Shown: positions 7,273 to 28,672, counted from the first letter of the stretch. The stretch: DNA of 32,000 nt from Moraxella nasovis (GCF_022701215.1 NZ_CP089976.1:1-32000); one strand, 5' to 3'. The notes: a model not told the origin generated them from the sequence alone. Made by a program: numbers and translations.

Positions 7273-7281
7273 TAAGGTCAA

Positions 7282-7620
7282 TTGTCCATCCAAACAATGC
7301 CTAGAAATACAGGTCAACAAAGCAGTGTTGGAAAGTCTGTTAATGCCGCAGGTGATGAGGGTGGGCATCTAATTGCTAGCGCACTCGGCGGTTCAGGTGA
7401 TAGAATCAACCTAGTACCCCAAGCACAAACACTTAATAGAAGCGACTGGAAGAAGATGGAAAATGAACTCGTAAGAGAGCTAAAAGCAGGTAAAAAAGTG
7501 ACTATCAAGATAGATGTGAGCTATCCAGCGACATCTACAAGACCAAATAGGTTTTACGTTACCGCAACCATCAGTCATAATGGAGAAACAGAAGTGAGAA
7601 GATTCCCTTTTTCACAATAA
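7282..7620 (+). CDS. orphan nuclease toxin tip, Endonuclease_NS_2 (YeeF/EssD-like) type
   Basis: DEGGHLIASALGGSGDRINLVPQAQTLNRSDWKKMENEL matches the GHLIA..GG...NLVPQ...N...W..ME signature as recalled. There is no ATG (TTG only) and no upstream delivery region. Confidence 0.6.
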   Translation: MSIQTMPRNTGQQSSVGKSVNAAGDEGGHLIASALGGSGDRINLVPQAQTLNRSDWKKMENELVRELKAGKKVTIKIDVSYPATSTRPNRFYVTATISHNGETEVRRFPFSQ

Positions 7621-7639
7621 ACTTTTGGAGGAGTTATCT

Positions 7640-8032
7640 ATGGAAAGTACACTAGGTGCAATTTATCAAAAAATAGCTAGTGATTTATTGAATTGCAATG
7701 TTAATCAAAAGTGGGACAAGTTGGTTTTAACATCAGATATTTTAAAACATAATGCCAGCTCTATCACATTTTGCGAATACCACAAAAATATAGCAAGCGA
7801 TGTGGATATTGAATTTGATACAATTTTTTCTATTAATGATTCGCTTGTTGAGTTAAGAGATGTTTTGCTAGATGGACTCGGTCATCGCATATGGGGGCTT
7901 GTTTTTACTCTATATCCCGATGGAAAATTTGAAATAGAATACGATTACAATAAGCCTGAAGATTATGAAGAAACAGATGGCATTATCACGGCTGAAGAAA
8001 TAAGTGACAGTCTGCAAAATCTATTTAAATAG
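7640..8032 (+). CDS. YezG/EssI-like (DUF600-type) immunity protein
   Basis: RBS ggaggag at 7627-7633 and ATG at 7640. Pattern AIYQKIASDL..KWDKLVL..(acidic)..IWGLVFTLYPDGKFEIEYDY resembles DUF600 immunity proteins. It lies directly after the nuclease tip. Confidence 0.55.
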   Translation: MESTLGAIYQKIASDLLNCNVNQKWDKLVLTSDILKHNASSITFCEYHKNIASDVDIEFDTIFSINDSLVELRDVLLDGLGHRIWGLVFTLYPDGKFEIEYDYNKPEDYEETDGIITAEEISDSLQNLFK

Positions 8033-8109
8033 CTATAAAATCAACCAAGTCTAAAGGTAAAATTTATTTTTAAAATACAATTGTATGGGCTTGGTTAACG
8101 ATAGGATAA

Positions 8110-10503
8110 CCACCATGCCCCACCCAAACCCCCCTTACCACAGCACTCACTACAGCTTTACTGTTAAGCTGCGGTGCTGCATGGGCGAATGGGTCTTTGA
8201 TTGTTGGTGGCACCACTCCAAACGCCAACCACCTGCAAGTCACCCATCAATCAGGCATCCAAGCCAATACATCAACACTCACCGTAGACGGCAAAGGTAT
8301 CTTTACAGGTGGTTATCTGCTTACCACAGATGAACAAGGCAACCAAACTAACTTTAAAGGTGGCATTATCACCCAAGATATGCAAAACCACCTTACCTAT
8401 GACGGCAGTGCAAATAGCATCGGCATCGCAGTCAGTGGCAAAGGCATCTCACCAACAAGCCTAGGCTATGGTATAATAGACCCCACTCATCAAACCAGCA
8501 CTACCTACTCTGCTGTAACAGGACAAGCAGGGCAGGCTCATGCCACCATCAAAGACAAAGACAGTCTTAATCAAACGCTACAAAACAGCTTTGATGAACA
8601 AGCATTTAATAGGGAGCTTGGGCTACAAACTCAAATCAGTACAGAGTTTGGTAGGCAAGCTCCGAGGGTGGTGGCACAGTTTAGTCAAAACCAAATCAAT
8701 AATATCCTAGAGCAACTTAATGACCCTAATTTAAGTCAAGATCAAGCAGAACAAATTCTTGATGAAGCCAAAAAATGGGATGAGGGTGGGATTTATAGTG
8801 TGGCACTGCATACTGCTATGGGTGCATTGGGTACAGGCTCTACTGAGGGAGCATTAGCAACAGGAACTGTAGCAACAATCGCTCCTAACATCCAAAAATT
8901 AGAAGATTATTTAACAAAACAACTGACCAAAGACAGCTCAAAAGAACAAGCAGACAAAGCCAGACAAACCGCCAAAGGCTTAATTTCTTTTGTCATGCTT
9001 GCCACAGGTCAAACAGCAGGACTTGACCCATCTAGTACCATGATGGCAACGAATGTGGAGATGAATAATCGGCAGTTGCATGGGCAAGAAAAGCAACTCG
9101 CCAGAGTTTTAGTTCAAAAAGCCAAACAAAAAGGGTTAAAAAGATCTGATGGTCAGTCTTATACACTTCAAGACATTGAAGATGCCTTACGCTGGGCAAA
9201 TAGCGGTAAGTATAAAGAGCGTTATGACAGTAATTCAAATGTAGCTATAAACAAATACAATGTGGCAAATGCCAACAAATTACTTTATGACAATGCCATA
9301 GGTGATGATTATAAAAAAGATGGGAAAAGATTGTGGAAAAGTTACTCTCAAGATGGTGTAACTGTCATGCGTCAGAACTTTAATAATATTAAAAAACCTG
9401 ACACAGAACTTATCAACCTTATCCAAAAACAAACCCCAAGTTATCAGTACACTTGGAACAAAGAACACATCAAAGGTTATCAAGCACCACCGAAAATCAC
9501 AACGCCCAGAAAAGTAGTTAAGGCACCAATTTATCCGCAGAGTGCTATGGATAGAAAAAATGCGACTATTAAGAGAAGTGGGGTTGATTTAAGTAGTTCT
9601 GCTAACATACAGGCAAAGTCTGATAAGATAATGAATGAAAAAGTCATGCCTGTTGTGCAAGTTGGAATTGGTGCTACCGAAGTGGTTGCAGGTAGTGCAA
9701 TGTGTACTACTGCATTAGGCTGTACAGCTGGCGTTGCCTTAATTACTAATGGTGTAGACAACGTAGCAACAGGTGGTTATAATTATGGCAAATCATTTAG
9801 CCAACAAACAAACTCAGTAGCACTTACCAAAGGGGTAGGGCTGTCTGAAAATACTGCTGCTAATGTTAAATTAGGGGTGGATTTGGCTTCGGGAGTTGGA
9901 GCGGGTAAAGCTGTTACTAAGACAGTTGGCAAAAGTACAGTAAGCAAAGTAGATGTTTCTAATAACCAAAGATTGCCTGATGTGTATGGTGATGGGGATT
10001 TGGGTAGTGTATTGGATGTGCCACCATATACTATAAGACAAGATAATAATTTTTATTCTGAAATTAATGAAAGAGGAAATCCTAAAGCTTATCTTGACAA
10101 AAATGGAAATCTCGTTCCAGCAAATGTAAATGGTAGGGGAACTATACAAACACATATTAGAGGTAGTAACCCTAGTGAAACACCTTATATATCTACAATT
10201 GATCCAAGCATTGTAGTTTCACCTAAAAAATATGCTAAACAACAAATTATAATTGATACTCAAAATTTACAAAAGGATATAGATAATGGTGTTGTTAAAG
10301 ATATTGAAATTGTTACCCCAAAGCAAATTATTTCTGAGTTGCAAGATAAAATAAATAAGGCACAAAATAGATATGATAAGAACCCATCTAATAAGAATCG
10401 CAATAGCCTAGATAGGGCAAAATCTGATTTAAAAAATGCGATGAGAGATGGAGAGTGTCTAATTAAAGGTATCGTCCCTTGTAATTATATTAAAAAAAAG
10501 TAA
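8110..10503 (+). CDS. cdiA: orphan CdiA C-terminal fragment (FHA-repeat end, pre-toxin region, VEMNN, about 477-aa C-terminal region with unassigned toxin domain)
   Basis: Frame 1 is open from 8110, with the first start-like codon a TTG at 8197. Reads FGRQAPRVVAQF and GIYSVALHTAMGALGTGSTEGALATG. The VENN variant NVEMNN is at 9052-9069. A Gly/Ala-rich hydrophobic segment follows (VVQVGIGATEVVAGSAMCTTALGCTAGVALITNG). The terminal domain reads ..GTIQTHIRGSNPSETPYISTIDPS..ECLIKGIVP. Confidence 0.75.
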   Translation, partial: PPCPTQTPLTTALTTALLLSCGAAWANGSLIVGGTTPNANHLQVTHQSGIQANTSTLTVDGKGIFTGGYLLTTDEQGNQTNFKGGIITQDMQNHLTYDGSANSIGIAVSGKGISPTSLGYGIIDPTHQTSTTYSAVTGQAGQAHATIKDKDSLNQTLQNSFDEQAFNRELGLQTQISTEFGRQAPRVVAQFSQNQINNILEQLNDPNLSQDQAEQILDEAKKWDEGGIYSVALHTAMGALGTGSTEGALATGTVATIAPNIQKLEDYLTKQLTKDSSKEQADKARQTAKGLISFVMLATGQTAGLDPSSTMMATNVEMNNRQLHGQEKQLARVLVQKAKQKGLKRSDGQSYTLQDIEDALRWANSGKYKERYDSNSNVAINKYNVANANKLLYDNAIGDDYKKDGKRLWKSYSQDGVTVMRQNFNNIKKPDTELINLIQKQTPSYQYTWNKEHIKGYQAPPKITTPRKVVKAPIYPQSAMDRKNATIKRSGVDLSSSANIQAKSDKIMNEKVMPVVQVGIGATEVVAGSAMCTTALGCTAGVALITNGVDNVATGGYNYGKSFSQQTNSVALTKGVGLSENTAANVKLGVDLASGVGAGKAVTKTVGKSTVSKVDVSNNQRLPDVYGDGDLGSVLDVPPYTIRQDNNFYSEINERGNPKAYLDKNGNLVPANVNGRGTIQTHIRGSNPSETPYISTIDPSIVVSPKKYAKQQIIIDTQNLQKDIDNGVVKDIEIVTPKQIISELQDKINKAQNRYDKNPSNKNRNSLDRAKSDLKNAMRDGECLIKGIVPCNYIKKK

Positions 10504-10513
10504 GGTTTTTTTT

Positions 10514-11143
10514 ATGAGCTCAAAAGAAATTGATGATTTATTATATGGCATACCAACCACAGTGGACTACACTGATCTGCCAGAGGAGTTAGATGAAGAG
10601 GACATTCCATCAGAAAGAATCGATGGTTTATTAAATATAATAAATAAAGAGATGGATATTTATTTATTATTCAGAGCATCTTTCCTTTTAAACTCTTGGG
10701 GTATTGATGAGGGTTTTAATAAAATGACGGAGCTTTTATTTAGTGATAAAATTTCTTATTTGATAATAAATAATTTAAAATCATTAGATGATACATATAA
10801 GCATGCTTTATCGTCTTATATTAGTTATTGGGCAGTAAATTCCGATCATGGAAATGGTGAAAAAGCGAGAAAAAAAATATATCAACCAATAAAGATTATT
10901 ATTGACAAGGCTAACATTCAGCCATTTCAAATAAATTCTTTATTTTGGGTGATTAAGAAAGAAGGATTTTATGAATATATTCCTTTATTAAAGCAACATT
11001 TAACAAAATTGTTAAGATACCACATGAATATGTATTGGGAAATACATGACTTATCAAAATTTTTATTGGATTTAGGATTTTCTGAATTTATTAATAAAAT
11101 TTTTTACCAAAATAATAAGGGGCTATCTGATTATGGTTTATAA
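10514..11143 (+). CDS. immunity-like protein for the preceding CdiA-CT (unassigned family)
   Basis: 209-aa very AT-rich ORF that starts 10 bp after the toxin stop. Acidic N-terminus. No recognised motif. Confidence 0.45.
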   Translation: MSSKEIDDLLYGIPTTVDYTDLPEELDEEDIPSERIDGLLNIINKEMDIYLLFRASFLLNSWGIDEGFNKMTELLFSDKISYLIINNLKSLDDTYKHALSSYISYWAVNSDHGNGEKARKKIYQPIKIIIDKANIQPFQINSLFWVIKKEGFYEYIPLLKQHLTKLLRYHMNMYWEIHDLSKFLLDLGFSEFINKIFYQNNKGLSDYGL

Positions 11144-11497
11144 GTATATTTAAAACAAGGCAAAGTAAATAAATATGGTGGCACTAGTAGTTATTCATTT
11201 TTTAGAACTCTTTGATGTATCCACAGATAGTAGGGCTTTATCTCCATAAACCAGTTTGAGTATCAAAGATAAATATACTTTACATTATTAATATCCTACA
11301 CCGCCTTTTCCAACATAAATCAAGGCAAAAAAAACAAGACGGTAATTTATTAAAATGTATCAAAAAAAAAAATTGGAGATAGTAATGACCAAATATGTAC
11401 ACATTAAGAGATTTTCTTCCTGATTTGGTACAGTGCAAGAAGATGATTTACTCTACTTCTTATCAGAAGAAGATTATGACACCTATTATAATTGTGA

Positions 11498-11962: not shown

Positions 11963-12121
11963 TTTAGCATGAGTTTTATTGATGGCTTGAATGGTTTGAG
12001 AATGTAAACCAAGTAATTCACCACTGCCTTTGGTGTAAATAGCTACTAACATCAACTAAGCTTACAGGCAGTAAACTGAAGCTCTCTGTGATGCTGGGTG
12101 GTGTGTTAGGCTTACACATTG

Positions 12122-13311: not shown

Positions 13312-14266
13312 TTAAATCTCAAAACATTCGCTAATTTGCGATAGTTTTGAGACAAAAAGGTCATCTAGATGGTCAGATAATGCTTGATGGAATTCATCTA
13401 AATTAAACCAATCTTCAAGTTTTGATATATTGGGCAATACGTCCCAATTAGGGCGGTATTCTGCTATTATGTGTGAGCGATGTTCATCTAATAGCTCTCT
13501 GACATTATCGCCTGGTTTTAAATCATTGACAAACTGCACCGCTGCTATGGCAATCAAGTCATAAATTTGCTGGGAATTATCAAGTACATATTTTGCAACA
13601 CGTTGCTTGGTGTTGAGCTCATATGTATCAACAAAATGCTTGATTTTTTTCAGCATTGTCATGAACAATATTGCAAAAATCATCATCAAGCCATACGCAG
13701 TTCTGCCAATTTAGGTCTTTAATAAGAACTGCAATGTCAAAATCATCACTTTGTAATTCCAAAGTATCCACAATCAACTGTTTTAGTAGGGGGTGTGACT
13801 CTTTTGCCGCATCTACTGCCATTTCAACAAAACCCAATTCATTTAAATTTTTGGCGGTGTAAGGTAATTCTGCATTTATGTATAGTTCAAAGAAAGGCTC
13901 TTGTTTTTTGTAACCAAGTTTAACCGTCTGTCTAACAAGAAATTGCAAGCCTGGCTCATAGTCATGATAAGCAAGTTCCATGTCCCAATCATATTTTTTA
14001 AGCTCATCGGTAAACTCATCATCAAGACCACCAGTAAGAAAGTCTCGTAATGTGGCACTCATACACCACCGACCAAAGCCGACAAAAGGATAGCTTATTC
14101 CGTCTTGGAGACCGTCTTTGAACTGTGATTTTTCAACCCAAAAACCATAAATGAAAGAATGTTGGTTTTCATCTAACCAAGTAAAAACTTTGGTTAGAGT
14201 TTCAAGAATTTGGGGGTTTTGTGTGGTTATGATTAAAGAACCATAAGCGTCGCTGATATTAGCCAT
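13312..14266 (-). CDS. acidic hypothetical protein (about 318 aa if the T7-run frameshift at 13644-13650 is corrected)
   Basis: ORFs 13628-14266 and 13312-13689 overlap at a homopolymer. One base change joins ..NIVHDNAEK to IKHFVDTYELN. RBS aggag precedes the ATG at 14266. The conserved leader lies upstream. Confidence 0.5.
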
Positions 14267-14370
14267 TTGTTATCTCCTGTTTAACGTTGATTAGATATAT
14301 ATAGAATAAAACAAGAGAAGAATAAACAAAAAGCAATAATATCTAACATAACCTAACAGCCGTTAGGCTA
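14267..14370 (-). promoter_or_regulatory. conserved leader, copy 1 (GCCTAACGG, pyrimidine-rich tract, TATATATCTAAT, RBS)
   Basis: The - strand reads TTAGCCTAACGGCTG..TTGCTTTTTGTTTATTCTTCTCTTGTTTTATTCTATATATATCTAATCAACG..AGGAG..ATG. The same architecture occurs at 19146-19251 and 20706-20838. Confidence 0.55.
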
Positions 14371-14406
14371 AGTAAATTATCATTCACGCCCGCATTCAGC
14401 TTTGTT

Positions 14407-14434
14407 AAAATCATCGTTACTTAGTAACGATTTT
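14407..14434 (-). terminator. hairpin with flanking A/T runs (bidirectional terminator-like)
   Basis: atcgttac tta gtaacgat (8-bp stem) flanked by aaaa and tttt, downstream of vapC. Confidence 0.4.
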
Positions 14435-14469
14435 AATATCTGTGCTGCCAAGCCTTCGCTGACAGTCTA

Positions 14470-14526
14470 GGCGGTGGGTGTGGCTTGCTTCTTATCTAAT
14501 CAACCGCCCAAGCCACAAGGAGTAAT
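14470..14526. repeat. 55-60-bp hairpin element, copy 1
   Basis: ggcggtgggtgtggcttgcttcTTATCTAATCAACCGCCCAAGCCACAAGGagtaatc, with stem gtggcttg/caagccac. It abuts the vapC stop. Confidence 0.8.
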
Positions 14527-14930
14527 CAGTTTTCTGTTCCAGATACCCAGTTCTCCACAGCCAAATCAAAACCTTCAAAATCTCGTTCGTTATTAGTAAC
14601 CAGCGTAAGATTTTGGCTGATAGCATGGCTGGCAATGAGCGTATCAAAACTAGCCTTGTGTTTTTTGCTTTGCATTATTTTACCAAAAATAACCGCCGCC
14701 TTGTCATCAAAGGGCAAAATAGTTATCATGCTTTGTAAGCGGTCAAAGATGGATTGTGATTGATGGATATTTAGTCCACGTTGCAACTCTGCCCATGTGA
14801 TTGCACTTATGGCGACTTCACCAACAAAACAACGGCTAAAATGCTCAACCACTGATGGCGGGGTATGTTTCATTAAATAAATGCATATGTTGGTGTCAAG
14901 CAAATACTTAGGTTGTATTACCATTGGCAC
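14526..14930 (-). CDS. vapC: PIN-domain toxin VapC
   Basis: KYLLDTNICIYLMK.. N-terminal PIN motif, later ..TLVTNNERDF. Overlaps the vapB stop. Confidence 0.85.
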   Translation of the reverse strand: MPMVIQPKYLLDTNICIYLMKHTPPSVVEHFSRCFVGEVAISAITWAELQRGLNIHQSQSIFDRLQSMITILPFDDKAAVIFGKIMQSKKHKASFDTLIASHAISQNLTLVTNNERDFEGFDLAVENWVSGTEN

Positions 14931-15136
14931 TCATTCTCCACAAGTTCGGCACGCTCAATATCTGCACCGATTTGACGGAGTAAGTGGGGCACTTCGCCCA
15001 AAGTTTTAACCGGTTCAATGATGACACAGCCATTCTCTTTGCGTAGAGAGACAGGGGTGTTTGCTCCAAAAGCCAGTGCTTTTGGTAAACGTACCGCTTG
15101 GCTGTTGCCAGAGACAAAAGGGATGGTAACAATCAT
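14918..15136 (-). CDS. vapB: AbrB/SpoVT-type antitoxin VapB
   Basis: FVSGNSQAVRLPKALAF is a typical SpoVT-AbrB antitoxin N-terminus. 72 aa, directly upstream of vapC. Confidence 0.8.
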   Translation of the reverse strand: MIVTIPFVSGNSQAVRLPKALAFGANTPVSLRKENGCVIIEPVKTLGEVPHLLRQIGADIERAELVENECQW

Positions 15137-15164
15137 TGTTAAGCTCCAAACTATGTATATCTTT

Positions 15165-15193
15165 AAGTATATACATAAAGATATACAAAGTCA
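15165..15193 (-). promoter_or_regulatory. vapBC-1 sigma70-like promoter overlapping a palindromic operator
   Basis: The - strand reads TTGACT-N17-TATACT. The inverted repeat gtatatcttta..taaagatatac spans the spacer and the -10 element, about 25 nt upstream of the vapB ATG. Confidence 0.6.
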
Positions 15194-15497
15194 ATGATTT
15201 TGCAATTTCACCACAAAAACCAGACTAGCTTTGTGAAGAACGGTAATTATTCATGGCGGAGGTAAATGCACTCTCAATCTCAGAAAAAAGCCATGTAGTC
15301 AAATGCACAACCGCAGATGGCTTCAATTGCAATGACCGTTAGGCTTACCACTATACAAATAATCAGCTTGCATTTCTAATCTATGTTATATTTTTTAATA
15401 ACTTTTGATTATTGTTTTTCGTTGTTTACTAATAGTTGAGTTATCAAACTTTTACTTGATAACTCAAAAAACCACTACATAAGCCATTAAAACTTAT

Positions 15498-15552
15498 GTG
15501 GTGGGGTGTGGCTTGGGTTTTTTATCTAATCAACCACCCAAGCCACGAGGGG
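15498..15552. repeat. 55-60-bp hairpin element, copy 2
   Basis: gtggtggggtgtggcttgggtttTTTATCTAATCAACCACCCAAGCCACGAGGgg, near-identical in core to copies 1 and 3. Confidence 0.8.
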
Positions 15553-15691
15553 TAGGCGTTTTGGTTTTAGGGTCTGTTGGAGTTTGTGTGCCATTGCCGA
15601 CACCATAATCATTAACCAATTCCGCAAAAATAGCAAAAGCAACATCGCTCATCATACGTTGTTCATAATCAAAACCATTTGGCACAGTGTT

Positions 15692-16153
15692 TCATGAAAT
15701 GGATTTATTGATGCCTATTACGAGACGATAAGGTTCATCGGTTGGCACAAAACCAAAGGTTTGATAATATTTCCAGGCTTTCATTTTTCGCATCGATTAC
15801 TACAAATGCCATACCGCTAAACAGAGAAAATTTTTTGATGCCTTTTAGGGCATCTGACAAGGCTTGTTTACTTAATCCTTTACCTTGATGATGAATATCT
15901 ACGCCAATACGACCAATTAAGATTGCTGGAATTTGCTTGGGATAGCCTTTAACTTTTCCAAATTCATTAAAAATGGTTATATTTGATAAAGTATAAAAGG
16001 CCAAATTTTATGATTGTCATCGACTAAAACATGAGTTCTAGCAATGCCTTTTTTGGCGTGTTGGCTTGCCATTGTGTGCAAATAGCGGTTAATGACTTCA
16101 TTGCCACAATCAAAATCCGCCTTGTCATGGTGCTTGCCCAATAGCTCAAACAT
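15692..16153 (-). pseudogene. TacT-like GNAT acetyltransferase toxin with two frame breaks
   Basis: MFELLGKHHDKADFDCGNEVINRYLHTMASQHAKKGIARTHVLVDD.. / ..AFYTLSNITI..IGRIGVDIHHQGKGLSKQAL.. / ..KAWKYYQTFGFVPTDEPYRL. The breaks lie near 16003-16009 and 15776-15790, both at short A/T runs. Confidence 0.7.
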
Positions 16154-16434
16154 TGATTTTCTCCCCTTTCATCATGCGTTCGCCTAATTCCAATAACTCA
16201 CGCATAAGGGGGGGTTGGAGATGGTGGGTTTTCTAGTAGCTCAATGATTTGTAAGGCTTGTTTTTCGGTCAATACTAAATTTGCACCGTCTGAATTTAAA
16301 CCGTGCTTATCCAGTTCTAGCCAAATATCATCGCTATTGGCCACACTTTGCAACAATTCATCGGTGGTAATGCCTTGTGCTTTGGCGGTCTCAATAATCG
16401 CTATGGCGGTTGCAGGTGGTAAATCTAAAATCAT
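16146..16434 (-). CDS. DUF1778 (TacA)-like antitoxin, frame broken at G7 run 16208-16214
   Basis: ILDLPPATAIAIIETAKAQGITTDELLQSV...LVLTEKQALQIIELLENPPSPTP. With one base change at the run the frame continues ..LMRELLELGERMMKGEKINV and ends in an ATGTTTGA overlap with the GNAT start. Confidence 0.6.
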
Positions 16435-16675
16435 CTATTTAATCTCCATTAATAATCAATCTTTAAAAGTTGTCATATTTTAAATGTTTGTTTTTCGCTA
16501 TAAGCCTTGCCATGTCTAGGGTGTGTCGGTTTTTTGTGATTTTGGTTTTGGGTTGGTTCTGTAAAGTTTTTTGGGTGTCGGATTTTTAAATCTTAGGGTA
16601 ATACCAGGGTGTTTACGCCTATGAAACAGACACATAAAAGCACCACAAGGGGGAATAACGGGCGTAAATGGGCAT

Positions 16676-16972
16676 TTATGCAATCAAAATTTGCTTATCA
16701 TTGATGGTAGAGGTAACGGTCAATTTACCGCCTAACGCTTCAACGTATTTGGCAAGCGTGGATAAATGCACATCAACACCATTTTCAATTTTGCTGATAT
16801 TAGCTTGTGATACGCCCATTTTGTCCGCCAGCTCCTTTTGTGATAAATGGGCGGTTTGTCTAAGCTGTGATAATTCATAGCTTTGTTTTAGGGTGCGGGC
16901 TTTGGTGTGTATTTTGGCTTGCTCATCTTTGGGTAGGCTTGCCAAAAAGGTTTGATGATTGGTAAAGCTCAT
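16676..16972 (-). CDS. XRE-family helix-turn-helix protein (antitoxin-like)
   Basis: LRQTAHLSQKELADKMGVSQANISKIENG is a canonical XRE HTH. Confidence 0.75.
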   Translation of the reverse strand: MSFTNHQTFLASLPKDEQAKIHTKARTLKQSYELSQLRQTAHLSQKELADKMGVSQANISKIENGVDVHLSTLAKYVEALGGKLTVTSTINDKQILIA

Positions 16973-17019
16973 TTTGTCAGCCCTTATTATCTTATGCCAT
17001 GACTTAACGCTCTGCGATT

Positions 17020-17283
17020 TTAGGCAAACGCCAAGCCCACTTCTTCCCCTAAATTAGCGTTAATATTTACTAATGCGTCAAGGCTAAATTTGCTAATCTT
17101 GCCCTGTAATAGGTCATTTAGGCGTGGTTGTGTGATACCGCATTCTTTTGCGATTTGGGCTTGTGTGCCGTCCATTTCGCTAATTAGCTTTTGAATATGG
17201 CTCATCAGCTGGGCCCTTAACTTTAAATTTGCACTTTGGCCGGGTGTGTCGCTTAGTGCGTCAAATACGCTGTTAAATTTCAT
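17020..17283 (-). CDS. XRE-family HTH antitoxin (HigA-like partner of the upstream Gp49-type toxin)
   Basis: GTQAQIAKECGITQPRLNDLLQGKISKFSLDALV. It starts 6 bp after the toxin stop. Confidence 0.7.
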   Translation of the reverse strand: MKFNSVFDALSDTPGQSANLKLRAQLMSHIQKLISEMDGTQAQIAKECGITQPRLNDLLQGKISKFSLDALVNINANLGEEVGLAFA

Positions 17284-17288
17284 CTTGA

Positions 17289-17606
17289 TTATCCTTGTAT
17301 TAGTTTTAGGCGGTCTTTGGCAAGCTCTATATCAGCTTTTGGGGTCTTTTGGGTTTTCTTGGTAAAGGCGTGTAATACATACACAGTATCAGCAAATTTG
17401 GCGGTATAAATTACCCTATAAATGCCTTATGCGTCTTTTAATCGTATTTCTACCACGCCAACACCAATACTAGGCATATATTTAAAATCACTTGGCATTT
17501 CGCCATTTTGCACCAAATGCAATTGATAGCCCGTATCTTGCTTTATGTCATTTGGAAAAGCTCTAATATCATCTAAGGACGTTCCCAAAAATTCAATATC
17601 TTTCAT
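17289..17606 (-). pseudogene. Gp49/HigB-like RelE-superfamily toxin with in-frame TAA
   Basis: MKDIEFLGTSLDDIRAFPNDIKQDTGYQLHLVQNGEMPSDFKYMPSIGVGVVEIRLKDA*GIYRVIYTAKFADTVYVLHAFTKKTQKTPKADIELAKDRL. The stop is at 17427-17429 and is not at a homopolymer. Confidence 0.7.
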
Positions 17607-17795
17607 TGTTATTTTAATTTGCCTTGTTTTCTTAAATTATATCAGTTTTAATATAATAACACAAGGGTTTTTCTTATGTCGCAATTTATAAACATGATAA
17701 CTGCCTTATGCTCAAACAACCTTAAATCTTAATTCCGCATTTGAAATGTAAAAATAGCAGGTGTGAACGCCAAAACACCGCTTTTTTATCATCTT

Positions 17796-17830
17796 AAAAA
17801 GCCTTTACCCCCTATAAATAAAGGCTTTTA
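17796..17830 (-). terminator. rho-independent terminator after vapBC-2
   Basis: Perfect 10-bp stem aaagccttta / taaaggcttt with an 11-nt loop. On the - strand the stem runs into a T tract. Confidence 0.5.
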
Positions 17831-17852
17831 CTACTTTATTTGTGCAAGATTT

Positions 17853-17910
17853 GGTGGTGTGGGCGGCTTAGGTTTTATCTAATCAACCGCCCAAGCCACA
17901 AGGAGTAATC
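17853..17910. repeat. 55-60-bp hairpin element, copy 3
   Basis: ggtggtgtgggcggcttaggtTTTATCTAATCAACCGCCCAAGCCACAAGGagtaatc. The 3' 38 bp are identical to copy 1. It lies 28 bp beyond the vapC-2 stop. Confidence 0.8.
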
Positions 17911-17938
17911 GCTTGCCATTATTAGTAGTGATTGTTAA

Positions 17939-18331
17939 TTATTCTAACCAGTTTTGCCATTTTAAGCCGTCAACTCGGCTAAACTCTTTGACATTATGCG
18001 TAATCAAGGTTAGATTTTTAGATAACGCTTGTCCTGCTATTAGCATGTCATACGCCCCGATCACTTGCCCCTGTCTTTGTAGGTCTGCTCGCACCTTGCC
18101 AGCACATAGAGCATCTTTATCATCAAAAGGCAATCTTACAAAGGGTAATTTGTCAATTTTTGCCAAATTTTCACGCTGTTTTTGACTATGATATGCCCCA
18201 TAATACAGCTCGAACAGCACAATATCCGACAACGCAAAATCGCTCACTTTACGTTGTTTTAGTCGTGCGATAAGCACAGGATTTTGCTTTTGTAGGGCAA
18301 TGATGATGTTGGTGTCAAGCAGGTATTTCAT
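17939..18331 (-). CDS. vapC: PIN-domain toxin VapC (second copy)
   Basis: MKYLLDTNIIIALQK.., ..LTLITHNVKEFSRV. 4-bp overlap with vapB. Confidence 0.85.
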   Translation of the reverse strand: MKYLLDTNIIIALQKQNPVLIARLKQRKVSDFALSDIVLFELYYGAYHSQKQRENLAKIDKLPFVRLPFDDKDALCAGKVRADLQRQGQVIGAYDMLIAGQALSKNLTLITHNVKEFSRVDGLKWQNWLE

Positions 18332-18573
18332 GCAAAATCTCGCTTGCTGATGGGGTCGTCTTTTAGCATTGCGACTGCTTGCTCCATGTCATCATCAAAG
18401 GACGAAACATCATCCAGCCAGCCCCAATCATCTATGATGGGCGTGATGATGAGTTGGTTGCCGTGTTTTTTTAACTGTACTTTATCGCCATCAAAGCGAA
18501 ATTCTTTGGGTAAGCGAATGGCTTGTGAATTGCCACTATAAAAAAGGCGTGCGGTAATCATATTTTTTCTCAT
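18328..18573 (-). CDS. vapB: AbrB/SpoVT-type antitoxin VapB (second copy)
   Basis: ARLFYSGNSQAIRLPKEFRF. The start may be the internal ATG at 18561. Confidence 0.8.
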   Translation of the reverse strand: MRKNMITARLFYSGNSQAIRLPKEFRFDGDKVQLKKHGNQLIITPIIDDWGWLDDVSSFDDDMEQAVAMLKDDPISKRDFA

Positions 18574-18594
18574 TGATGTATATATGATTGGTAT

Positions 18595-18623
18595 ATATTA
18601 TTAAACTTTATGTCATTTGTCAA
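18595..18623 (-). promoter_or_regulatory. vapBC-2 sigma70-like promoter
   Basis: The - strand reads TTGACA-N17-TAATAT. AT-rich inverted repeats lie between the -10 element and the start codon. Confidence 0.55.
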
Positions 18624-18749
18624 TTTTTACACTCAAATGCAGGAGCAAAACCGTAAGGAGAAATAGACAGGTTAACTGCTTGGTATATGGTGACGCGTTT
18701 AGCCAGCTCAGAACCACTTTTATCTGTTTTTTACCACAACGCTTAAATT

Positions 18750-19145
18750 TTAAAAACCCAGCTTAAAATCAGCATATTTGTTGTTTTGGATTTTAACCAA
18801 CAACTTTTTGATTACCATGTGGTTTGCCATATCAAAAACACCCCAAAATACATCGTCAATCAAATCATAATTAGGGTCGTTTTTTTGTATTTCTTGCAAA
18901 AATCCGATACGGTTTGATAAGGCTAAAAAGGTTTGGTGGTAAGCATGTTGCCAATTGTGAGTGCATAAGATATTACTTAAGACTTCTGAATTATCCATAA
19001 AAGCGTCTAATGCTTCTTTTGGGTCATTGTGGGTGTCTAATAATGATATAATACATTCGTCAGATACTTCATCAAGAAGTAGCATCAAGTTACTTTCTTG
19101 TTTGGATATATATTCACTTGTATTAGTGTTTAGTTCTAAAGCCAT
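18750..19145 (-). CDS. small acidic hypothetical protein
   Basis: 131 aa, Asp/Glu-rich, with no signal peptide. Preceded by conserved leader copy 2. Confidence 0.5.
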   Translation of the reverse strand: MALELNTNTSEYISKQESNLMLLLDEVSDECIISLLDTHNDPKEALDAFMDNSEVLSNILCTHNWQHAYHQTFLALSNRIGFLQEIQKNDPNYDLIDDVFWGVFDMANHMVIKKLLVKIQNNKYADFKLGF

Positions 19146-19251
19146 GGCGGCACTCCTTATGATTTGGGTTAATTAGATATATAATAAAGGAGGCAGGAAA
19201 GGGAAGGAAGCAAACAACACCTACGAAGCGCACAACAGCCGTTAGGCTAAT
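19146..19251 (-). promoter_or_regulatory. conserved leader, copy 2
   Basis: The - strand reads TTAGCCTAACGGCTG..TTGTTTGCTTCCTTCCCTTTCCTGCCTCCTTTATTATATATCTAATTAACC..AGGAG..ATG. Confidence 0.55.
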
Positions 19252-19448
19252 TCAATTTGCATCACGCCTGCAAACCAAACAACCAACGAAAAACACCGCC
19301 AAGCCCATCAAAGATTTGGCGGGGTGTGGCTATTGTCGTGAGGGTGATGCACTTCGTTCCAAAAAAAATAATGAAACTTGGCGCAAAATGCCATAATTAA
19401 GATATACAACGCCTATGGAATTGCTAAATTTGTCTTTGGGTAGGTATT

Positions 19449-19911
19449 CTACTTGATAAATCCTAGATTGCTCAACCGCAACAGAATACTAGGAGTAGAT
19501 ACCCAAAAAAGCGTTTGCAAGCACTGAGACATCTGTCATATCTTTTTCAAAAATTAGATGCCTAAGAATTGCTTTTGGCATCAAAAGTTCGGCAGCAAAA
19601 GCACTGGCTTCTTTAGAAGCTTCTAATTCATTAAAATTAGATAAAACATACCGCCCTAGCTCGTGAGCAAGCATAAAACGCTGACGATGAGGGTGCTGAT
19701 TACTGTTGATTGTAATCACATAAGTGCTATTTTTACGATCGTACTCAATTTTTCCAGAACTATCGCTGGGCATTGGTTCAATTTTAACCAATAAATCAGG
19801 ATTATCCATTTTTGCACGCATTTTATCGATAATTTGCTCAGGTATGACCGGAAGTTTCCTATCCCAGTAACTATCTAAAATACTTTGGGCATAATTTACG
19901 GCTCTTGTCAT
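19449..19911 (-). CDS. ImmA/IrrE-like zinc metallopeptidase, frame broken at A6 run 19505-19510
   Basis: HEXXH motif in FMLAHELGRYVL, then ..AFAAELLMPK. One base change restores the typical C-terminus ..AFWVSTPSILLRLSNLGFIK. Confidence 0.65.
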
Positions 19912-20041
19912 TTGTTTCTCCTTTTAACTAAGATGATACCGCCATGATTTACAAAACCCCACCACAAGTTGATTGATAGTGGGGGTGGTTGTTTACTTAA
20001 ATTTACTTAAGTAGGGTGATGATTTTATCAGCAAAATTATC

Positions 20042-20296
20042 TTAATCTGCCCATCTAGCACAACCTTGGTAATCTTGCAGCCACCTGGCACACTTGTAAA
20101 GCACTTTGTTGGTAAAGGTTGTGCTGATAAAAACTGTTTTATTGTTCTTACGATTTTTTATAAAGCCTAGGCAACCTAGTTTTTTGCCATTTGCAGTTTT
20201 TTGATTGATATGAAATTCCAAATCCATTGAAGGCTGTGCTTTTTTTGTTGCTTTTTTAATGGTATTTTTGGTTTTAGTGGTTAACAATACAGTCAT
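20042..20296 (-). CDS. small basic hypothetical protein
   Basis: 84 aa, Lys-rich N-terminus (TKTKNTIKKATKKAQ). No motif recognised. Confidence 0.4.
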   Translation of the reverse strand: MTVLLTTKTKNTIKKATKKAQPSMDLEFHINQKTANGKKLGCLGFIKNRKNNKTVFISTTFTNKVLYKCARWLQDYQGCARWAD

Positions 20297-20333
20297 AACA
20301 TACTCCTATCGAAGACAAAAGTTAGAATAAAAA

Positions 20334-20705
20334 CTAAAAAGGACAGCAAAAGATATAGCTGGATTCTGGGTCTTTTGATAAAGAGTGAATAAACTTATCC
20401 AAAGCTTTGTCAAAATCATCAAACCATTGCCCCTCTTCACAACCAACGCCACGAAAATAGGCAGATTGACACAATGTAGGGTTGTAGAGGTGTTGTAGCC
20501 CTGCCAGTAAATCCTCTTTTAATGAGGGAAAGGTGTCACGGCTAAAGCTTTCTAATATCATGTCTGAACTAACATCTGTAATATTGGCTGAGTAACCGCC
20601 ATCTTCCTCATAGATGGCTATACGCAAGCCCATATCCTTGGCAAGTTCAAATATTTTTTGATTAATTAAATCTTGTTGATTATAAGTAGATGTATTTGTT
20701 GTCAT
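20334..20705 (-). CDS. small acidic hypothetical protein
   Basis: 123 aa, acidic. RBS aggag. Preceded by conserved leader copy 3. Confidence 0.5.
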   Translation of the reverse strand: MTTNTSTYNQQDLINQKIFELAKDMGLRIAIYEEDGGYSANITDVSSDMILESFSRDTFPSLKEDLLAGLQHLYNPTLCQSAYFRGVGCEEGQWFDDFDKALDKFIHSLSKDPESSYIFCCPF

Positions 20706-20838
20706 GGATATACTCCTGATTCATAAGATGAATTAAAAATAATTTGATAATTTGTTTAGGGATGTATATAGATTAAAAGAAAAAAGGCAGAGAAGGATAC
20801 GCAACCATCCTAAAAGACCCAAGTCGCCGTTAGGCTAA
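20706..20838 (-). promoter_or_regulatory. conserved leader, copy 3
   Basis: The - strand reads TTAGCCTAACGGCGA..TATCCTTCTCTGCCTTTTTTCTTTTAATCTATATACATCCCTAAAC..AGGAG..ATG. Confidence 0.5.
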
Positions 20839-21246
20839 TGAGTGTTTTTTATGTATTTCTTTTTTTTTAATTTTATTTATTAATATTATTGAATTATTTA
20901 TTTAGTTTTTATATAATAGTCATGTCATCAATAAAAATAAAGAAGTTTTTTATTTTTATTAATGATTAGCCCACACCGCCGTAAAACCACCCTATTCATG
21001 GGGTGGATATAAGGCAATGGGTGTGCTATAATCATCTTAACTTCACCCAAAGTACAAGAATGAGCGGATAATTTTGCAAGTATGCAACTTGTTCTTTTAA
21101 GTTAAGTGAAATGAGTTTGTAATTTAACACCAGCCCTAATAAGTTCGTGCTAATTTTTTTAGCAATCATTAACAAGTAGGACGACTTACTAGGAATAAGA
21201 AAGATGTCTTGTATCTTGGTGTCATACAACAAAAAAACATTTTTTT

Positions 21247-21300
21247 CGTCTGGGACGTCAGACGCTTATAGAAGGAAGCTCCTGCTTTTAGGCAGGGGAG
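21247..21300. other. isolated GC-rich double hairpin in an AT-rich gene-poor stretch
   Basis: cgtctg-ggacgt-cagacg (21247-21264) and gctcctgc-ttttag-gcaggggag (21278-21300). ACGTCA is repeated at 21256 and 21302. Confidence 0.3.
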
Positions 21301-21838
21301 TACGTCATTGGATTTTTAATGAATTGTATGGATAATAATTCAAATAATAAAAAAACGTTGAGCATTAGCCATAATAATGATTACTTTGGTTGCTTTATTT
21401 CTAATTATTAAAAATATCAATACTTGCTATTTCTGTCTTGTTAATTTTACCTTTTCTTTGCTTCTTCAACAATAATTTCTGTCAGTCTTTTTCTTTCTTT
21501 AATCAAGTAAGAAATTTCTGACATTGGATTTTTAGCCATAAATATGACAATAATTATTATTGTTGAATAAAGAAGTATCATATTTGTTTTTTAACATATC
21601 TTATATTTCCTTAAAATTTAAACAAGTAAACTATCTAACTTCTTAATAGAAATATCCAAATCGCTTATTTTACGCTTATATTTTATTTTTAGCTTTTTTA
21701 AATGTTTTTCTTTAATGAAGTAATGCAATTTATTTTCAATTTTAATAATTTTACATTTATTTTTTGTATTTAGTAAGGAATATATAATTGGAGCAAAACA
21801 TAAAATTAAACTTGAAATAGCTAAAAATGCAGAAATAA

Positions 21839-22210
21839 TTACGATTTTATTTTTTTTTCTAAATTTAAAATAGAACCAACTATTATATTTATAAAACTAT
21901 AACCTGCAAATATAAGACTAATAAACATGCTGTTCGTTTTAAAATCATCAGATATACTACAATTATGAATAAATTTTCTGTAATCACTGTGAGAGACCGC
22001 CACAAAACCTTGCTCAATCTTAGTAGATAACAGATAGTTCAATCTTTCTAGGTCTGCTTGATAATCTTGCAATTCTGAAAGCAATTTCTTGTGTTGAAGC
22101 TGATTGTTAATGCGAGTGCGTTCATCAGCAAGTCTTTTTCTTTCTGCTACGGCTTCATTATAGCTGGGTAATTGGTTCATTTTTAATAATTCCTTGTTGT
22201 TAGATGGCAA
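21839..22210 (-). CDS. coiled-coil protein, probably continuing into a membrane segment if the T9-run frameshift (21850-21858) is corrected (then about 21618-22210)
   Basis: ERKRLADERTRINNQLQHKKLLSELQDYQADLERLNYLL. After the run another frame reads IVIISAFLAISSLILCFAPIIY... Confidence 0.45.
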   Translation of the reverse strand: MPSNNKELLKMNQLPSYNEAVAERKRLADERTRINNQLQHKKLLSELQDYQADLERLNYLLSTKIEQGFVAVSHSDYRKFIHNCSISDDFKTNSMFISLIFAGYSFINIIVGSILNLEKKIKS

Positions 22211-22318: not shown

Positions 22319-22416
22319 GTATTATAACACCCACAAAAAACAATATCAATAGATTTTATTTAATAATTTTGATATGATAGTATTAAAAATATTATTAGGT
22401 GATATTGTATTATTGT

Positions 22417-23064
22417 ATGGCTGATAAAAACAATATAAATAAAATAGATAAACTGGGTAAACATCAAATTGTTGGATATATCAGAGTATCAAGCTTAGAT
22501 CAAAATACAGAGCGTCAGCTAGATGGTGTTACCCTTGATAGAGTATTTATTGACAAGATAACAGGATCAACTAAAAACCGTCCACAGCTAAATGCGATGC
22601 TTGATTATGTGCGATTTGGTGATACCGTTATTGTGCATAGTCTTGATAGATTAGCACGCAATCTTGAAGATTTGTTAGACATCATCAAACAGCTCAATGA
22701 TAAGGGTGTGATTTTTCAGTCCTTAAAAGAGAATGTAAAATTTGATGGTTCAAGCCCTAGTGCTATGGATAAACTAATATTGCATATTTTTGGAGCCATT
22801 GCTGAGTTTAATCGATCACTCATACGAGAAGCTCAAAAAGAGGGAATAGCCAAAGCCAAGCAGCGTGGTGCGTACAAAGGAAGAAAACCTGCTTTAAACA
22901 AAACGCAGGTAAAAGAGCTTAAAGACATCATTGAATCTAAAAACAACTCTATTGAAAACTACAAAGAACTCACTTTACCAAAAATTGCTGATCAATTTGG
23001 TGTTTCACTACCGACTATCAATCGCTACATCAAAAAGATTAAAGAAAAAAAAACGAAGGGATAA
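22417..23064 (+). CDS. serine recombinase (resolvase/invertase family)
   Basis: VGYIRVSSLDQNTERQLDG catalytic-Ser motif, ..DRLARN.., and a C-terminal HTH IADQFGVSLPTINRYIKK. Confidence 0.9.
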   Translation: MADKNNINKIDKLGKHQIVGYIRVSSLDQNTERQLDGVTLDRVFIDKITGSTKNRPQLNAMLDYVRFGDTVIVHSLDRLARNLEDLLDIIKQLNDKGVIFQSLKENVKFDGSSPSAMDKLILHIFGAIAEFNRSLIREAQKEGIAKAKQRGAYKGRKPALNKTQVKELKDIIESKNNSIENYKELTLPKIADQFGVSLPTINRYIKKIKEKKTKG

Positions 23065-23066
23065 AA

Positions 23067-23912
23067 ATGAAAAAACCCATTGCTTACAACCCAGAGAAAT
23101 TGTTATACAAGCCCATTTTCACCAAAGATGAGTTGGCATATTTAGAGGCTTTAAACAGCGTATCAAAAAGTGAATATTTGCTATCACCTAGAAATATTCA
23201 ATCCTTTTCTATCAGCTTTGCACATACCTCAGCTGTGCTAGAAGGTAACACCTATAGTGCTGTTGAAGCTGAGCTGCTTTTAACATTAGGTCAAACAGGC
23301 GCACATAGACAGCTAAGTGAAGCACTCATGCTAAAAACAATGCAAAGCTCTTTTAACTATATTGTAGAAGAATCTCAACATAGTAAAACAGATGCACGTC
23401 GCCCACTATCATATATAGTTAAAAATGCACATGCAATGGTGTCTGAAGGTATACTAAATCAACAATATTGCGGTACAGCACGCAATGAGCCAGTGCTTAT
23501 CACAGCAACAGATTATATCCCCTCTGACATTCCTCAGCAGCTTGAAGATGGTTTACAAATAATTGAAACAGAATATGATAGTATTAAAAATACCTTTGAA
23601 AAAGCAGTTTATATTCATCAAAACCTATCATATTTGCAATATTTCTATGATCATAACAAACGCACAGCACGCAATATGTGTGCATACACACTACTAGCTG
23701 ACAACAAGATGCCGGTTATGTTTACTGAACGCAGCACTGAAGAATACGCACGCGCTGTCATATCTTATTATGAAAGTGAACCAGCAGATTATAGTGCGTT
23801 CAAAGACTATTTTATTGCATCTTATGAGCGTGTTTGTTCACGAATGAATGCCTTTGCTGTTGAGCAGGCTCATGCACTAGTATTTTCCACCAATCAAGAC
23901 ATCAATCTCTAG
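23067..23912 (+). CDS. Fic-fold protein with degenerate active-site motif
   Basis: Fic_N-like HTSAVLEGNTYSAVEAELLL. In place of HPFxDGNGRxxR it reads QYFYDHNKRTAR, so the catalytic His position is Gln and both Gly are replaced. Confidence 0.65.
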   Translation: MKKPIAYNPEKLLYKPIFTKDELAYLEALNSVSKSEYLLSPRNIQSFSISFAHTSAVLEGNTYSAVEAELLLTLGQTGAHRQLSEALMLKTMQSSFNYIVEESQHSKTDARRPLSYIVKNAHAMVSEGILNQQYCGTARNEPVLITATDYIPSDIPQQLEDGLQIIETEYDSIKNTFEKAVYIHQNLSYLQYFYDHNKRTARNMCAYTLLADNKMPVMFTERSTEEYARAVISYYESEPADYSAFKDYFIASYERVCSRMNAFAVEQAHALVFSTNQDINL

Positions 23913-23930
23913 TGTCCGAATTCGGACACT
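23911..23930. promoter_or_regulatory. 20-bp perfect palindrome (candidate oriT inverted repeat or operator)
   Basis: agtgtccgaattcggacact is its own reverse complement. It overlaps the fic stop and lies 14 bp upstream of the relaxase ORF. No T-run follows on either strand. Confidence 0.45.
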
Positions 23931-23943: not shown

Positions 23944-24625
23944 GTGTTTATGGGTAAAAAGTTATTTGATGATATTGATGAGTGGTTCAACGGCAACCGT
24001 AAAACTACATCAAAGTCAGCTGGTAGTGGTGGCAGTGTTACGTTACCAAAAATTAGAAAGCCCACACCAAAACCACAAGCTATCAAAAACATCATTAACG
24101 GTGCCAAGTCTGCCAAGAAAGGTGTAGCCAATAAGGGTGGCAAGAAATTGCCACAGGTGGTTGTTAAAATTAGTGGTAGCAGCAAGGGTGCTGAATAAGG
24201 CACAAAGTCACCTTAATTATACGGGACGCAAAGGCAAAGTTGAGCTAGAAGATGAGCAGGGAAATAAATATTTAGGTGATGAGCAAAAAGAGTTAATGAA
24301 AAGCTGGGAAGCGGCAGGATTTCATGATAAGCATGATACTGGCAACAAGAGAGAGGCCTTTCATTTTGTATTTTCAATGCCCGAAGGCACTGACCCAAAG
24401 GGATTAAAAGATGCTGTACGCAATCTAGTGCAAGAAGAATTCACAGGACATAAATATTTTATGGCGCAGCACCTAGACACAGATAAACCACACTGCCACG
24501 TGTTGATCTGTGCCACAGATGATCGTGGTGCACGTCTAAATCCACGAAAGCAAGATTTACACAATTACCGTGTAGCATTTGTCAACAAGCTAGCTGAGCA
24601 AGGTATTTCAGCCTTTGATACTTGA
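23944..24625 (+). pseudogene. relaxase (MobA/VirD2-type) N-terminal fragment, frameshifted and 3'-truncated
   Basis: VVVKISGSSKGA.. then a frame shift to KAQSHLNYTGRKGKVELEDEQG.., EAFHFVFSMPEG, and the His triad HLDTDKPHCHVLI. It ends after ..NKLAEQGISA, only about 225 aa. Confidence 0.7.
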
Positions 24626-26980: not shown

Positions 26981-26992
26981 GATTACCTCAGC

Positions 26993-28462: not shown

Positions 28463-28604
28463 CGCAAGTACTAAATAAGGGTAGGGGTTTGGTCTCAAAG
28501 GTAAGTTTTCACCCGCACTACCAATTTTTACCCGCTATTGATTTATTTTTGCATTCGGCATCTGAAACGGACAAGTACCAAATATGAAAAACTTAAAATA
28601 TTAT

Positions 28605-28622: not shown

Positions 28623-28672
28623 TTATAACCCAATTCAATCAAATGGCAAGCCACAACGCCAAACAGTTGCGT

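Follow-up and report, generated by a model that had tools for sequence, protein, structure and literature searches.

Four described systems invite comparison with the element analysed here, a leader that recurs before unrelated genes of Moraxella nasovis. The CUP repeats and the ArdK regulon of IncN plasmids are said to go back to Delver and Belogurov in 1997, and the single-strand promoters Frpo and ssi reportedly to Masai and Arai in the same year. JUMPStart/ops, the element of RfaH-type NusG paralogues, is a short conserved sequence in the leaders of unrelated operons, conjugation operons such as F tra included. In the IncN plasmids pKM101 and R46, 13-nt conserved sites stand before leading-region genes (PMC6289460). 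The leading region of pESBL (IncI1) holds six early operons (PMC12672017), and four establishment promoters of the Bacillus pumilus plasmid p576 are repressed by Reg576 (PMC6294495). We analysed a 32,000-nt stretch of the M. nasovis genome (GCF_022701215.1, NZ_CP089976.1:1-32000), referred to as a whole as the window, together with a related locus of Moraxella caviae. The leader is a real, previously undescribed cis element of ~105 nt and, by analogy with these systems, appears to join a known theme, that of repeated control elements heading leading-region operons.

A leader shared by unrelated genes in two Moraxella species

A motif scan of the window revealed three exact copies of TTAGCCTAACGGC on the minus strand, at 14371-14359, 19250-19238 and 20838-20826. 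When up to two mismatches were allowed, 4 matches were observed compared with 0.54 expected, and 4 were reached in 1 of 100 shuffles; the fourth match, TAAGCCTAACGGT (15347-15335, minus strand), differs at two positions. With the first T of TTAGCC as reference, all three full leaders have TAG(G/A) at +26/27 and TATAT at +67/68, and leaders A and B continue with GGAG at +94 and ATG at +105. Leader C is longer by ~28 nt, all of them between the TATAT box and the Shine-Dalgarno (SD) sequence, and this extra sequence holds a local hairpin (ATTCAT-CTT-ATGAAT). The preliminary description of the window had reported the same ordered elements before the genes starting at 14266, 19145 and 20705, and the exact core and fixed spacing in 3/3 leaders bear it out. 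The leaders and the hairpins next to them are as follows.

14267-14371, minus strand: leader A, with hairpin 14368-14359, TAGA at ~14345 and a pyrimidine tract
Leader A, gene-proximal part, minus strand: -10-like TATTCT/ATATAT 14308-14297, GGAG 14277-14274, ATG 14266
19146-19250, minus strand: leader B, with hairpin GCC-TAAC-GGC 19247-19238 and TAGG at ~19223
Leader B, gene-proximal part, minus strand: -10-like TATTAT 19186-19181, A/C-rich stretch, GGAG 19156-19153, ATG 19145
20706-20838, minus strand: leader C, with mini hairpin GCC-TAAC-GGC 20835-20826, TAGG at ~20812 and a pyrimidine tract
Leader C, gene-proximal part, minus strand: -10-like TAATCT/ATATAC 20775-20764, GGAG 20716-20713, ATG 20705
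15335-15347, minus strand: copy D, a truncated fourth leader; a G-T pair closes the stem and the remaining leader is missing
19289-19328, minus strand: terminator-like hairpin with T run, found by sequence inspection ~40 nt upstream of leader B
14413-14431, strand-neutral: palindromic hairpin ATCGTTAC-TAA-GTAACGAT, 42 nt upstream of leader A, terminator-like both ways

The terminator-like hairpin before leader B implies that unit B needs its own promoter. The pyrimidine tract of leader B is 90% pyrimidine with A absent, and the hairpin can be lengthened to a 9-bp stem in copy A only. After copy D comes a vapBC module that has a sigma70-like promoter of its own (15194-15166).

The same leader was found in M. 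caviae (locus L019; MUXU01000048.1, 7600-28259), where a leader profile run with nhmmer identified 6 copies, each directly upstream of a gene or operon. The leader of the M. caviae homologue of protein A consists of TAAGCCTAACGGC, a pyrimidine tract, TATTAT, an A/C-rich stretch, GGAG and ATG, and its distance from the first T to the ATG is 105 nt, the same as in M. nasovis leader A. A hidden Markov model built from the six M. caviae leaders alone returned as its top matches exactly the three window leaders (E = 1.1e-3 for leader A, 1.5e-5 for leader B and 1.3e-3 for leader C); the reciprocal test, with window leaders as the model and M. caviae leaders as the target, also succeeded. Since the leader core and the 105-nt distance have been kept though the two A proteins are only 33% identical, purifying selection on the leader is indicated. 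Judged by these sequences, the leaders are a genuine cross-species element, apparently held under selection while the downstream coding sequence diverged. It is most improbable that they are non-functional relics of an ancient duplication of one upstream region; the presence of only three copies in M. nasovis, in a decayed island with pseudogenes, would suit such relics, but core, order and length are conserved between the species despite the divergence of the proteins, and the conservation is patterned (invariant core, compensatory stem, box), not uniform.

Alignment of the nine leaders (Mn, M. nasovis, n = 3; Mc, M. caviae, n = 6) resolved a module of fixed order. At its start is an invariant CTAACG centre with complementary G/C pairs on both sides (SSC-TAAC-GSS, 10 nt), the stem being GCC-TAAC-GGC in six copies (and, with GGT, in truncated copy D), CGC-TAAC-GCG in two and GGC-TAAC-GCC in one. 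All 30 of 30 cells are paired on the gap-free alignment, a value equalled in 0 of 500 shuffles, and 2 of the 3 stem pairs show compensatory changes (GCC/GGC, CGC/GCG, GGC/GCC). A GG box follows at a distance of ~20 nt and reads GGGGYTTGGAT in M. caviae and either TAGG or TAGA in M. nasovis; next come a GGTTTT(G)C/TTGC motif and the tract that had been described as pyrimidine-rich; over the nine leaders this tract of ~30 nt is indeed 78% pyrimidine and contains 4% A. The TAtTAT-type box stands 54-61 nt past CTAAC, in register in 9/9 leaders, and leads into ~20 nt of A/C-rich sequence (71% A+C, CAACCAA frequent), GGAG and ATG. In the two long copies, MnC and Mc2 (the ssb leader), the additional nucleotides lie past the box and form a local hairpin, as expected for insertions in a 5' untranslated region (UTR). 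Upstream of the hairpin, semi-conserved motifs extend over ~35 nt, namely TGCnG…GTGAT, ATAG and, in four M. caviae copies, AGACA-N8-CTAAC.

Other readings of the aligned leaders were rejected by eye for wrong spacing or absent consensus: a sigma54 site (GG-N10-GC), a sigma70 promoter with a -35 at 15-19 bp or an extended -10, and IHF, dif/Xer and invertase sites. In a separate observation, the mini hairpin in its Mc6 variant, GGCTAACGCC, was found once in the M. bovis plasmid pMBO-2 (6998-7007), in the intergenic oriT/promoter region before the relaxase operon and 13 nt upstream of an extended -10, TGGTACAAT; ~0.2 such sites are expected by chance, and the site may or may not be related to the leaders.

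The genes of the M. caviae locus lie on a single strand in the order umuC, a HinfI-type restriction-modification system with DUF4062, two small open reading frames (ORFs), the A-homologue, ssb with an Rv2179c-like exonuclease gene, DUF4942, several small ORFs, and then DotD, T4SS_TraI and a DotB-type ATPase. Six consecutive units are headed by the leader (the A-homologue, ssb with the exonuclease, DUF4942 and three small-ORF sets), and a strong intrinsic terminator lies 50-100 nt upstream of 5/6 leaders. The window itself has no ssb. DUF4942 may be an orphan methyltransferase. The composition of the array is that of the leading, or establishment, region of a conjugative element. Leading-region islands are described as carrying SSB and toxin-antitoxin genes and also orphan methyltransferases, with a umuCD boundary on the side away from the origin of transfer (oriT) (Samuel et al. 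2024, PMC11541004, in which the term DUF4942 is absent).

Two further features of the M. caviae locus were noted. Between the leader array and DotD, ~26 consecutive 21-nt periodic units (L019 17910-18455; consensus CATAAAACAAGCATACTGCGT) form a candidate protein-coating site, for example a centromere, an iteron array or an accessory of oriT. Within the long spacer that precedes the ssb leader, 72 nt (L019 10752-10823) are 82% identical to pMBO-2 12044-12116, just past a TnpB gene, and are probably a relic of an IS200/IS605-type end.

Candidate roles of the leader

The reading that we favour, and to which we give an even chance, is that the leaders are a shared promoter, operator and 5' UTR module that would make the units one regulon, burst-expressed on entry into a new host. 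An intrinsic terminator would insulate each unit from the preceding one, and because a terminator before the unit is combined with a fixed distance from leader to start codon, the leader would have to provide transcription initiation. The likeliest core promoter element would be the TAtTAT box, followed by a short (~25-nt), A/C-rich and unstructured 5' UTR, GGAG and ATG. The absence of a -35 element, together with three upstream motifs in fixed register, suggests that the box depends on a factor recognising these motifs. The A-depleted pyrimidine tract, the GG box and the mini hairpin or inverted repeat may thus form the docking site of a dedicated factor, encoded by the element or the host, which would switch all units together and bring about burst expression in the newly entered cell. 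Homology, spacing, conservation between the species, covariation of the hairpin, terminators and gene context are shown by the sequences; the promoter assignment, the binding factor and the co-regulation we infer from this arrangement.

Such a module would resemble CUP/ArdK, to which we liken it by arrangement, in having dispersed conserved upstream repeats before unrelated leading-region genes (3, plus 1 truncated, in the window and 6 in the M. caviae locus) and a short (~13-nt), strongly conserved core that would serve as the regulator site of a co-regulated establishment regulon. It differs in that the Moraxella core is a mini hairpin with a 3-bp stem ~60 nt upstream of a -35-less box, whereas the CUP operator overlaps a strong promoter; in addition, no ArdK-like gene was recognised in the Moraxella arrays, the hosts are Moraxellaceae, and the type IV secretion system (T4SS) in M. 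caviae is of the Dot/IncI type. With Reg576 it would share several establishment promoters with a short repeated operator, and firing in p576 is proposed to be transient after transfer, through de-repression and not through a structure in single-stranded DNA. However, the p576 operator is a dual TTATCCC at canonical sigmaA promoters with a known ribbon-helix-helix repressor, while the Moraxella promoter candidate has no -35 and its putative site lies far upstream.

Several observations weigh against a promoter and operator module. The aligned leaders show neither a -35 hexamer 15-19 bp from the TAtTAT box nor a TGn, and a consensus promoter scan called no promoter in any of them. No candidate regulator gene was found, the small ORFs being without Pfam or NCBIfam match and, toxin-antitoxin antitoxins excepted, without a DNA-binding domain recognisable in these databases. 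The element is carried by two genomes only, and the covariation rests on three stem variants. Finally, compensatory changes in the arms are unusual for a duplex operator and fit a single-stranded hairpin better, which keeps two further readings alive.

In the first of these, the leader would represent a new, compact class of early promoters or priming signals that are active on single-stranded DNA, here the incoming transferred strand (T-strand). The 10-nt hairpin and a T-less purine tract on the template strand, poorly bound by SSB, would allow RNA polymerase or a primase to begin at the TAtTAT box while the second strand has yet to be made, so that the job of Frpo/ssi would be done without a large stem-loop. 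The preliminary description had raised single-strand-active promoters, and the M. caviae locus offers several points in their favour. Six units in a row, ssb and further leading-region genes among them, are headed by the leader, and the same positions are held by single-strand promoters in IncI1 pESBL (PMC12672017), which likewise has six operons. As with Frpo/ssi of IncF and IncI1, repeated non-coding elements precede ssb and early genes, one per operon (PMC9849209; PMC12672017). The genes run from the umuC boundary to the T4SS side, the orientation expected with the T-strand as template (PMC11541004). The hairpin covaries, the lack of a -35 makes the leader look weak as a duplex promoter, and the strand asymmetry is extreme, with A so rare in the 30 nt before the box.

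Folding analysis argues against this reading, in that no Frpo-like structure was found and the leaders are weakly folded on both strands (-11 to -17 kcal/mol per 162-196 nt, z -2.4 to +2.1). Whole intergenic segments reach -15 to -41 kcal/mol, the 663-nt segment before ssb excepted, and all of them, this one included, give ~-0.07 to -0.14 kcal/mol per nt, compared with -0.24 to -0.25 for the F Frpo1/2 regions in the same script. A published mining of single-strand promoters used a threshold of < -75 kcal/mol (PMC12672017), of which the folding energies of the leaders fall short; the large stem-loop of Frpo/ssi that rebuilds -35 and -10 is absent from them. Nor can a duplex promoter be rebuilt, since a partner complementary to the -10 box is lacking. 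The leaders also have no sequence similarity to Frpo, as a blastn-short comparison of the nine leaders with F 52-68 kb gave scattered 11-12-nt chance matches only, and the window genes are directed away from the only relaxase remnant. We regard a single-strand signal as unlikely.

The second reading places a promoter between the upstream terminator and the hairpin, so that the hairpin would be transcribed and act in the growing transcript or, within the transcription bubble, in the non-template strand, either recruiting an antiterminator or stabilising factor as in JUMPStart/ops or serving as a 5'-terminal stabiliser. The covariation agrees with this, as do the G-T (G-U) pair in copy D, a hairpin size of 10 nt that suits a transcription bubble, the semi-conserved motifs reaching ~35 nt upstream of the hairpin, and the precedent of JUMPStart/ops, whose tiny non-template-strand hairpin is comparable to the Moraxella mini hairpin. 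The ops core GGCGGTAG is absent from the nine leaders, however, and no NusG/KOW gene or NusG paralogue was seen in the window or the M. caviae locus. No consistent -35/-10 pair lies upstream of the hairpin, and the gap left by the terminator of leader B is only ~40 nt. RNAalifold retained the mini hairpin alone on the nine leaders (structure conservation index 0.21), and an Rfam covariance-model scan of the whole window (E <= 1) gave no match. Pairing between the pyrimidine tract and the SD (anti-SD pairing) was overall no better than with shuffled tracts; leader A alone folds well, and its pairing looks significant. A transcribed hairpin likewise seems to us unlikely.

A third alternative, that the repeats are recombination sites of a cassette system, either integron attC-like or targets of the adjacent serine recombinase, would explain why unrelated orphan genes stand behind one repeated sequence. 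An attC site is bounded by R'' (RYYYAAC) and R' (GTTRRRY) around an imperfect palindrome of 57-141 nt. GCCTAAC fits the inverse-core consensus R'', the orphan genes lie in one orientation mixed with toxin-antitoxin modules, and a recombinase gene (22399-23064) diverges from the array. Nevertheless, leaders B and C have no complementary R' box at 50-130 nt and leader A has one by chance, none of the leaders shows an attC-like fold, and the Mc4-6 cores (GCGCTAAC, AGGCTAAC) depart from R''. The window contains no tyrosine integrase (IntI), its recombinase being a pMBO-2-type serine resolvase (PF00239), and the element keeps a constant distance to gene starts and comes with a -10 box and SD. We consider recombination sites very improbable.

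A more far-reaching proposal, which we put forward as doubtful, is that the leader is a compact new early-expression signal in which a loop-specific 10-nt hairpin, an A-less tract and a -35-less TAtTAT box would be read on the incoming single strand or through a hairpin-binding factor, replacing the Frpo-type stem-loops of enterobacterial plasmids.

Orientation, island decay and encoded proteins

The preliminary description had placed the window genes in a leading region on the strength of their orientation. All convincing ORFs at 12.1-22.2 kb are on the minus strand, and the genes at 12.2-22.2 kb do run away from the relaxase remnant, as had been stated. Leading-region genes that are expressed from the incoming strand have the T-strand as their template and therefore point toward oriT, and a gene in opposite orientation is not expressed from that strand (PMC9849209). 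The F plasmid, examined as a control, has its leading genes on the strand of traM and traJ, directed toward oriT; the window genes show the opposite with respect to the relaxase remnant, and no oriT was identified in the window. Moreover, the relaxase remnant belongs to the MPF_T/MOBP lineage of pMBO-2, which differs from the Dot-type M. caviae element. Because the window genes run away from a remnant of another plasmid lineage, the geometric argument fails; it had the direction backwards. The M. caviae array, running from the umuC boundary to the T4SS genes, is consistent with the toward-oriT rule, oriT and relaxase lying outside the stretch examined. A leading-region origin of the window array is supported instead by the homology of its leader and protein A to the M. 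caviae array.

The genes behind the leaders and the plasmid-derived genes flanking the array are listed below.

13628-14266, minus strand: gene A, 212 aa, isoelectric point (pI) 4.32
13689-13312 and 13255-13031, minus strand: two small acidic ORFs after gene A
18750-19145, minus strand: gene B, 131 aa, pI 4.58, orphan
20334-20705, minus strand: gene C, 123 aa, pI 4.31, orphan
20296-20042, minus strand: 84-aa basic ORF in the same unit as gene C
22399-23064, divergent from the array: serine resolvase (PF00239), 60% identical to the pMBO-2 resolvase
23067-23912: Fic gene, in the plasmid-derived segment flanking the array
23944-24625, plus strand: MOBP-type relaxase remnant, frameshifted and truncated, with PF03432 at 24137-24625

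The relaxase remnant proved real by its PF03432 match and by 72% amino acid identity to the M. bovis pMBO-2 relaxase (best 115-aa segment, across 23959-24622). A perfect 20-bp palindrome, AGTGTCCGAATTCGGACACT (23911-23930), lies between the Fic stop codon and the remnant. As pMBO-2 homology starts only at the relaxase start codon, the palindrome is a junction feature and no demonstrated oriT; it may be a terminator, an operator or an oriT relic. Two vapBC modules accompany A, B and C in the array, as do higA with a broken higB, an XRE-type gene, two GNAT toxins (one intact, one broken) and a truncated ImmA/IrrE peptidase. It is a decayed chromosomal remnant, invaded by vapBC, higBA and GNAT modules, beside pMBO-2-like plasmid debris.

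Individual lesions are a stop codon interrupting the higB/relE-like toxin gene (17606-17300), the split of a GNAT toxin gene into two ORFs (16153-15735), and the truncation of the ImmA/IrrE M78 peptidase gene (19911-19489), whose HExxH motif reads HELGR. A 58-nt repeat (72-86% identity) lies directly past the two vapC stops and the broken GNAT unit, at 14470-14527, 15500-15557 and 17853-17910. Its left arm and TTGATTAGATAA are conserved, its right arm is variable yet complementary in shifting registers, and it may be the 3' end or terminator of a mobile toxin-antitoxin module. A terminator-like site that would work in both directions, at 21240-21300, consists of two adjoining hairpins flanked by runs of A and T. 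The sequence at 21300-21850, which separates the first array gene (22180-21839) from leader C, is extremely AT-rich and holds tiny ORFs only.

Outside the array, the plus strand at 1-11200 encodes a C39 peptidase, an ankyrin-repeat protein, a YezG-like immunity protein and a 768-aa orphan, with CdiA-like pre-toxin fragments at ~11.6-12.0 kb, and the 1-12.0 kb stretch resembles an island of polymorphic toxin/immunity or bacteriocin genes that converges on the array. It includes eight tandem copies of a 14-nt unit, GGGAAAGTGAGATT (4827-4978). Tandem pairs occur at 1705-1762 (29 nt) and 31792-31845 (27 nt). On the minus strand at 25607-31634 are five consecutive large ORFs (457, 501, 181, 228 and 566 aa) with no Pfam match; some of their products begin with a segment resembling a signal peptide and end in a low-complexity tail rich in Ser, Asn and Thr.

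Proteins A, B and C are all acidic, as had been noted, with pI values of 4.3-4.6. Pfam, PHROG, NCBIfam and PDB-sequence searches gave no match for any of them, pairwise comparison detected no similarity among the three, and their common N-terminal N-T/I-S-x-Y was judged too short to count as kinship. Exact-protein look-ups of A, B, C, the HigA-like protein and VapC returned no record, and in a word-index search of 5.8 billion proteins A, B and C matched only the M. nasovis proteins themselves (100%). The earlier statement that they have no recognisable family holds for the orphans B and C and not for A, for which HMMER found 21 remote relatives among 1.84 billion representatives, the best being the M. 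caviae protein. The A family is uncharacterised, has an invariant N-terminus MANISxAxG and motifs GxGRW and DYEPG, and has no Pfam or PDB kin; it also occurs in phage-like contigs beside RNR, CHAP, dUTPase and pol III beta genes, and an accessory role in mobile elements is plausible. An alpha/beta fold was predicted for protein A from an 18-sequence alignment (predicted local distance difference test, pLDDT, 78); the model had no PDB match at E < 1e-3, ArdA/Ocr-like folds included, and matched two unnamed phage proteins at E ~1e-7. The single-sequence model of protein C (pLDDT 55) is unreliable. The anti-defence or DNA-mimic role proposed for the three proteins is unsupported.

Distribution and significance

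DNA similarity searches of PLSDB with 12-25 kb and 14.2-21.1 kb of the window, in near and distant modes, gave no match, nor did a tblastn search of the M. caviae A-homologue against plasmids. Scans for the 13-mer and core patterns with spacing constraints returned chance matches only in viral contigs, GTDB species genomes and JGI metagenomes, collections that gave no match to the source genome itself, which is therefore absent from or masked in them. A different conserved element, TTAGCCTAACGGCTAGGAAGGG… / TTAGCCTAACGGCTAGGAAGGGnnTAGGGTnGCAACCTGnnCCCGACC, was seen at four Pasteurellaceae loci and two IMG/VR loci, directly past the stop codon of a small membrane-protein gene; it was set aside as unrelated, having the 14-mer and a CCTA/TAGG mini stem in common with the Moraxella leader and nothing else.

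The element also marks the chromosomal stretch of M. nasovis in which orphan acidic genes are mixed with toxin-antitoxin modules as the wreck of an establishment region. Frpo/ssi, CUP/ArdK and Reg576 are known from few model plasmids, and the Moraxella leader would add a Moraxellaceae solution of different anatomy. The CTAAC mini hairpin with a TAtTAT box at ~58 nt would provide a simple tag for establishment genes among the orphan ORFs of Moraxella elements, and this tag could point to candidates for new anti-defence functions.

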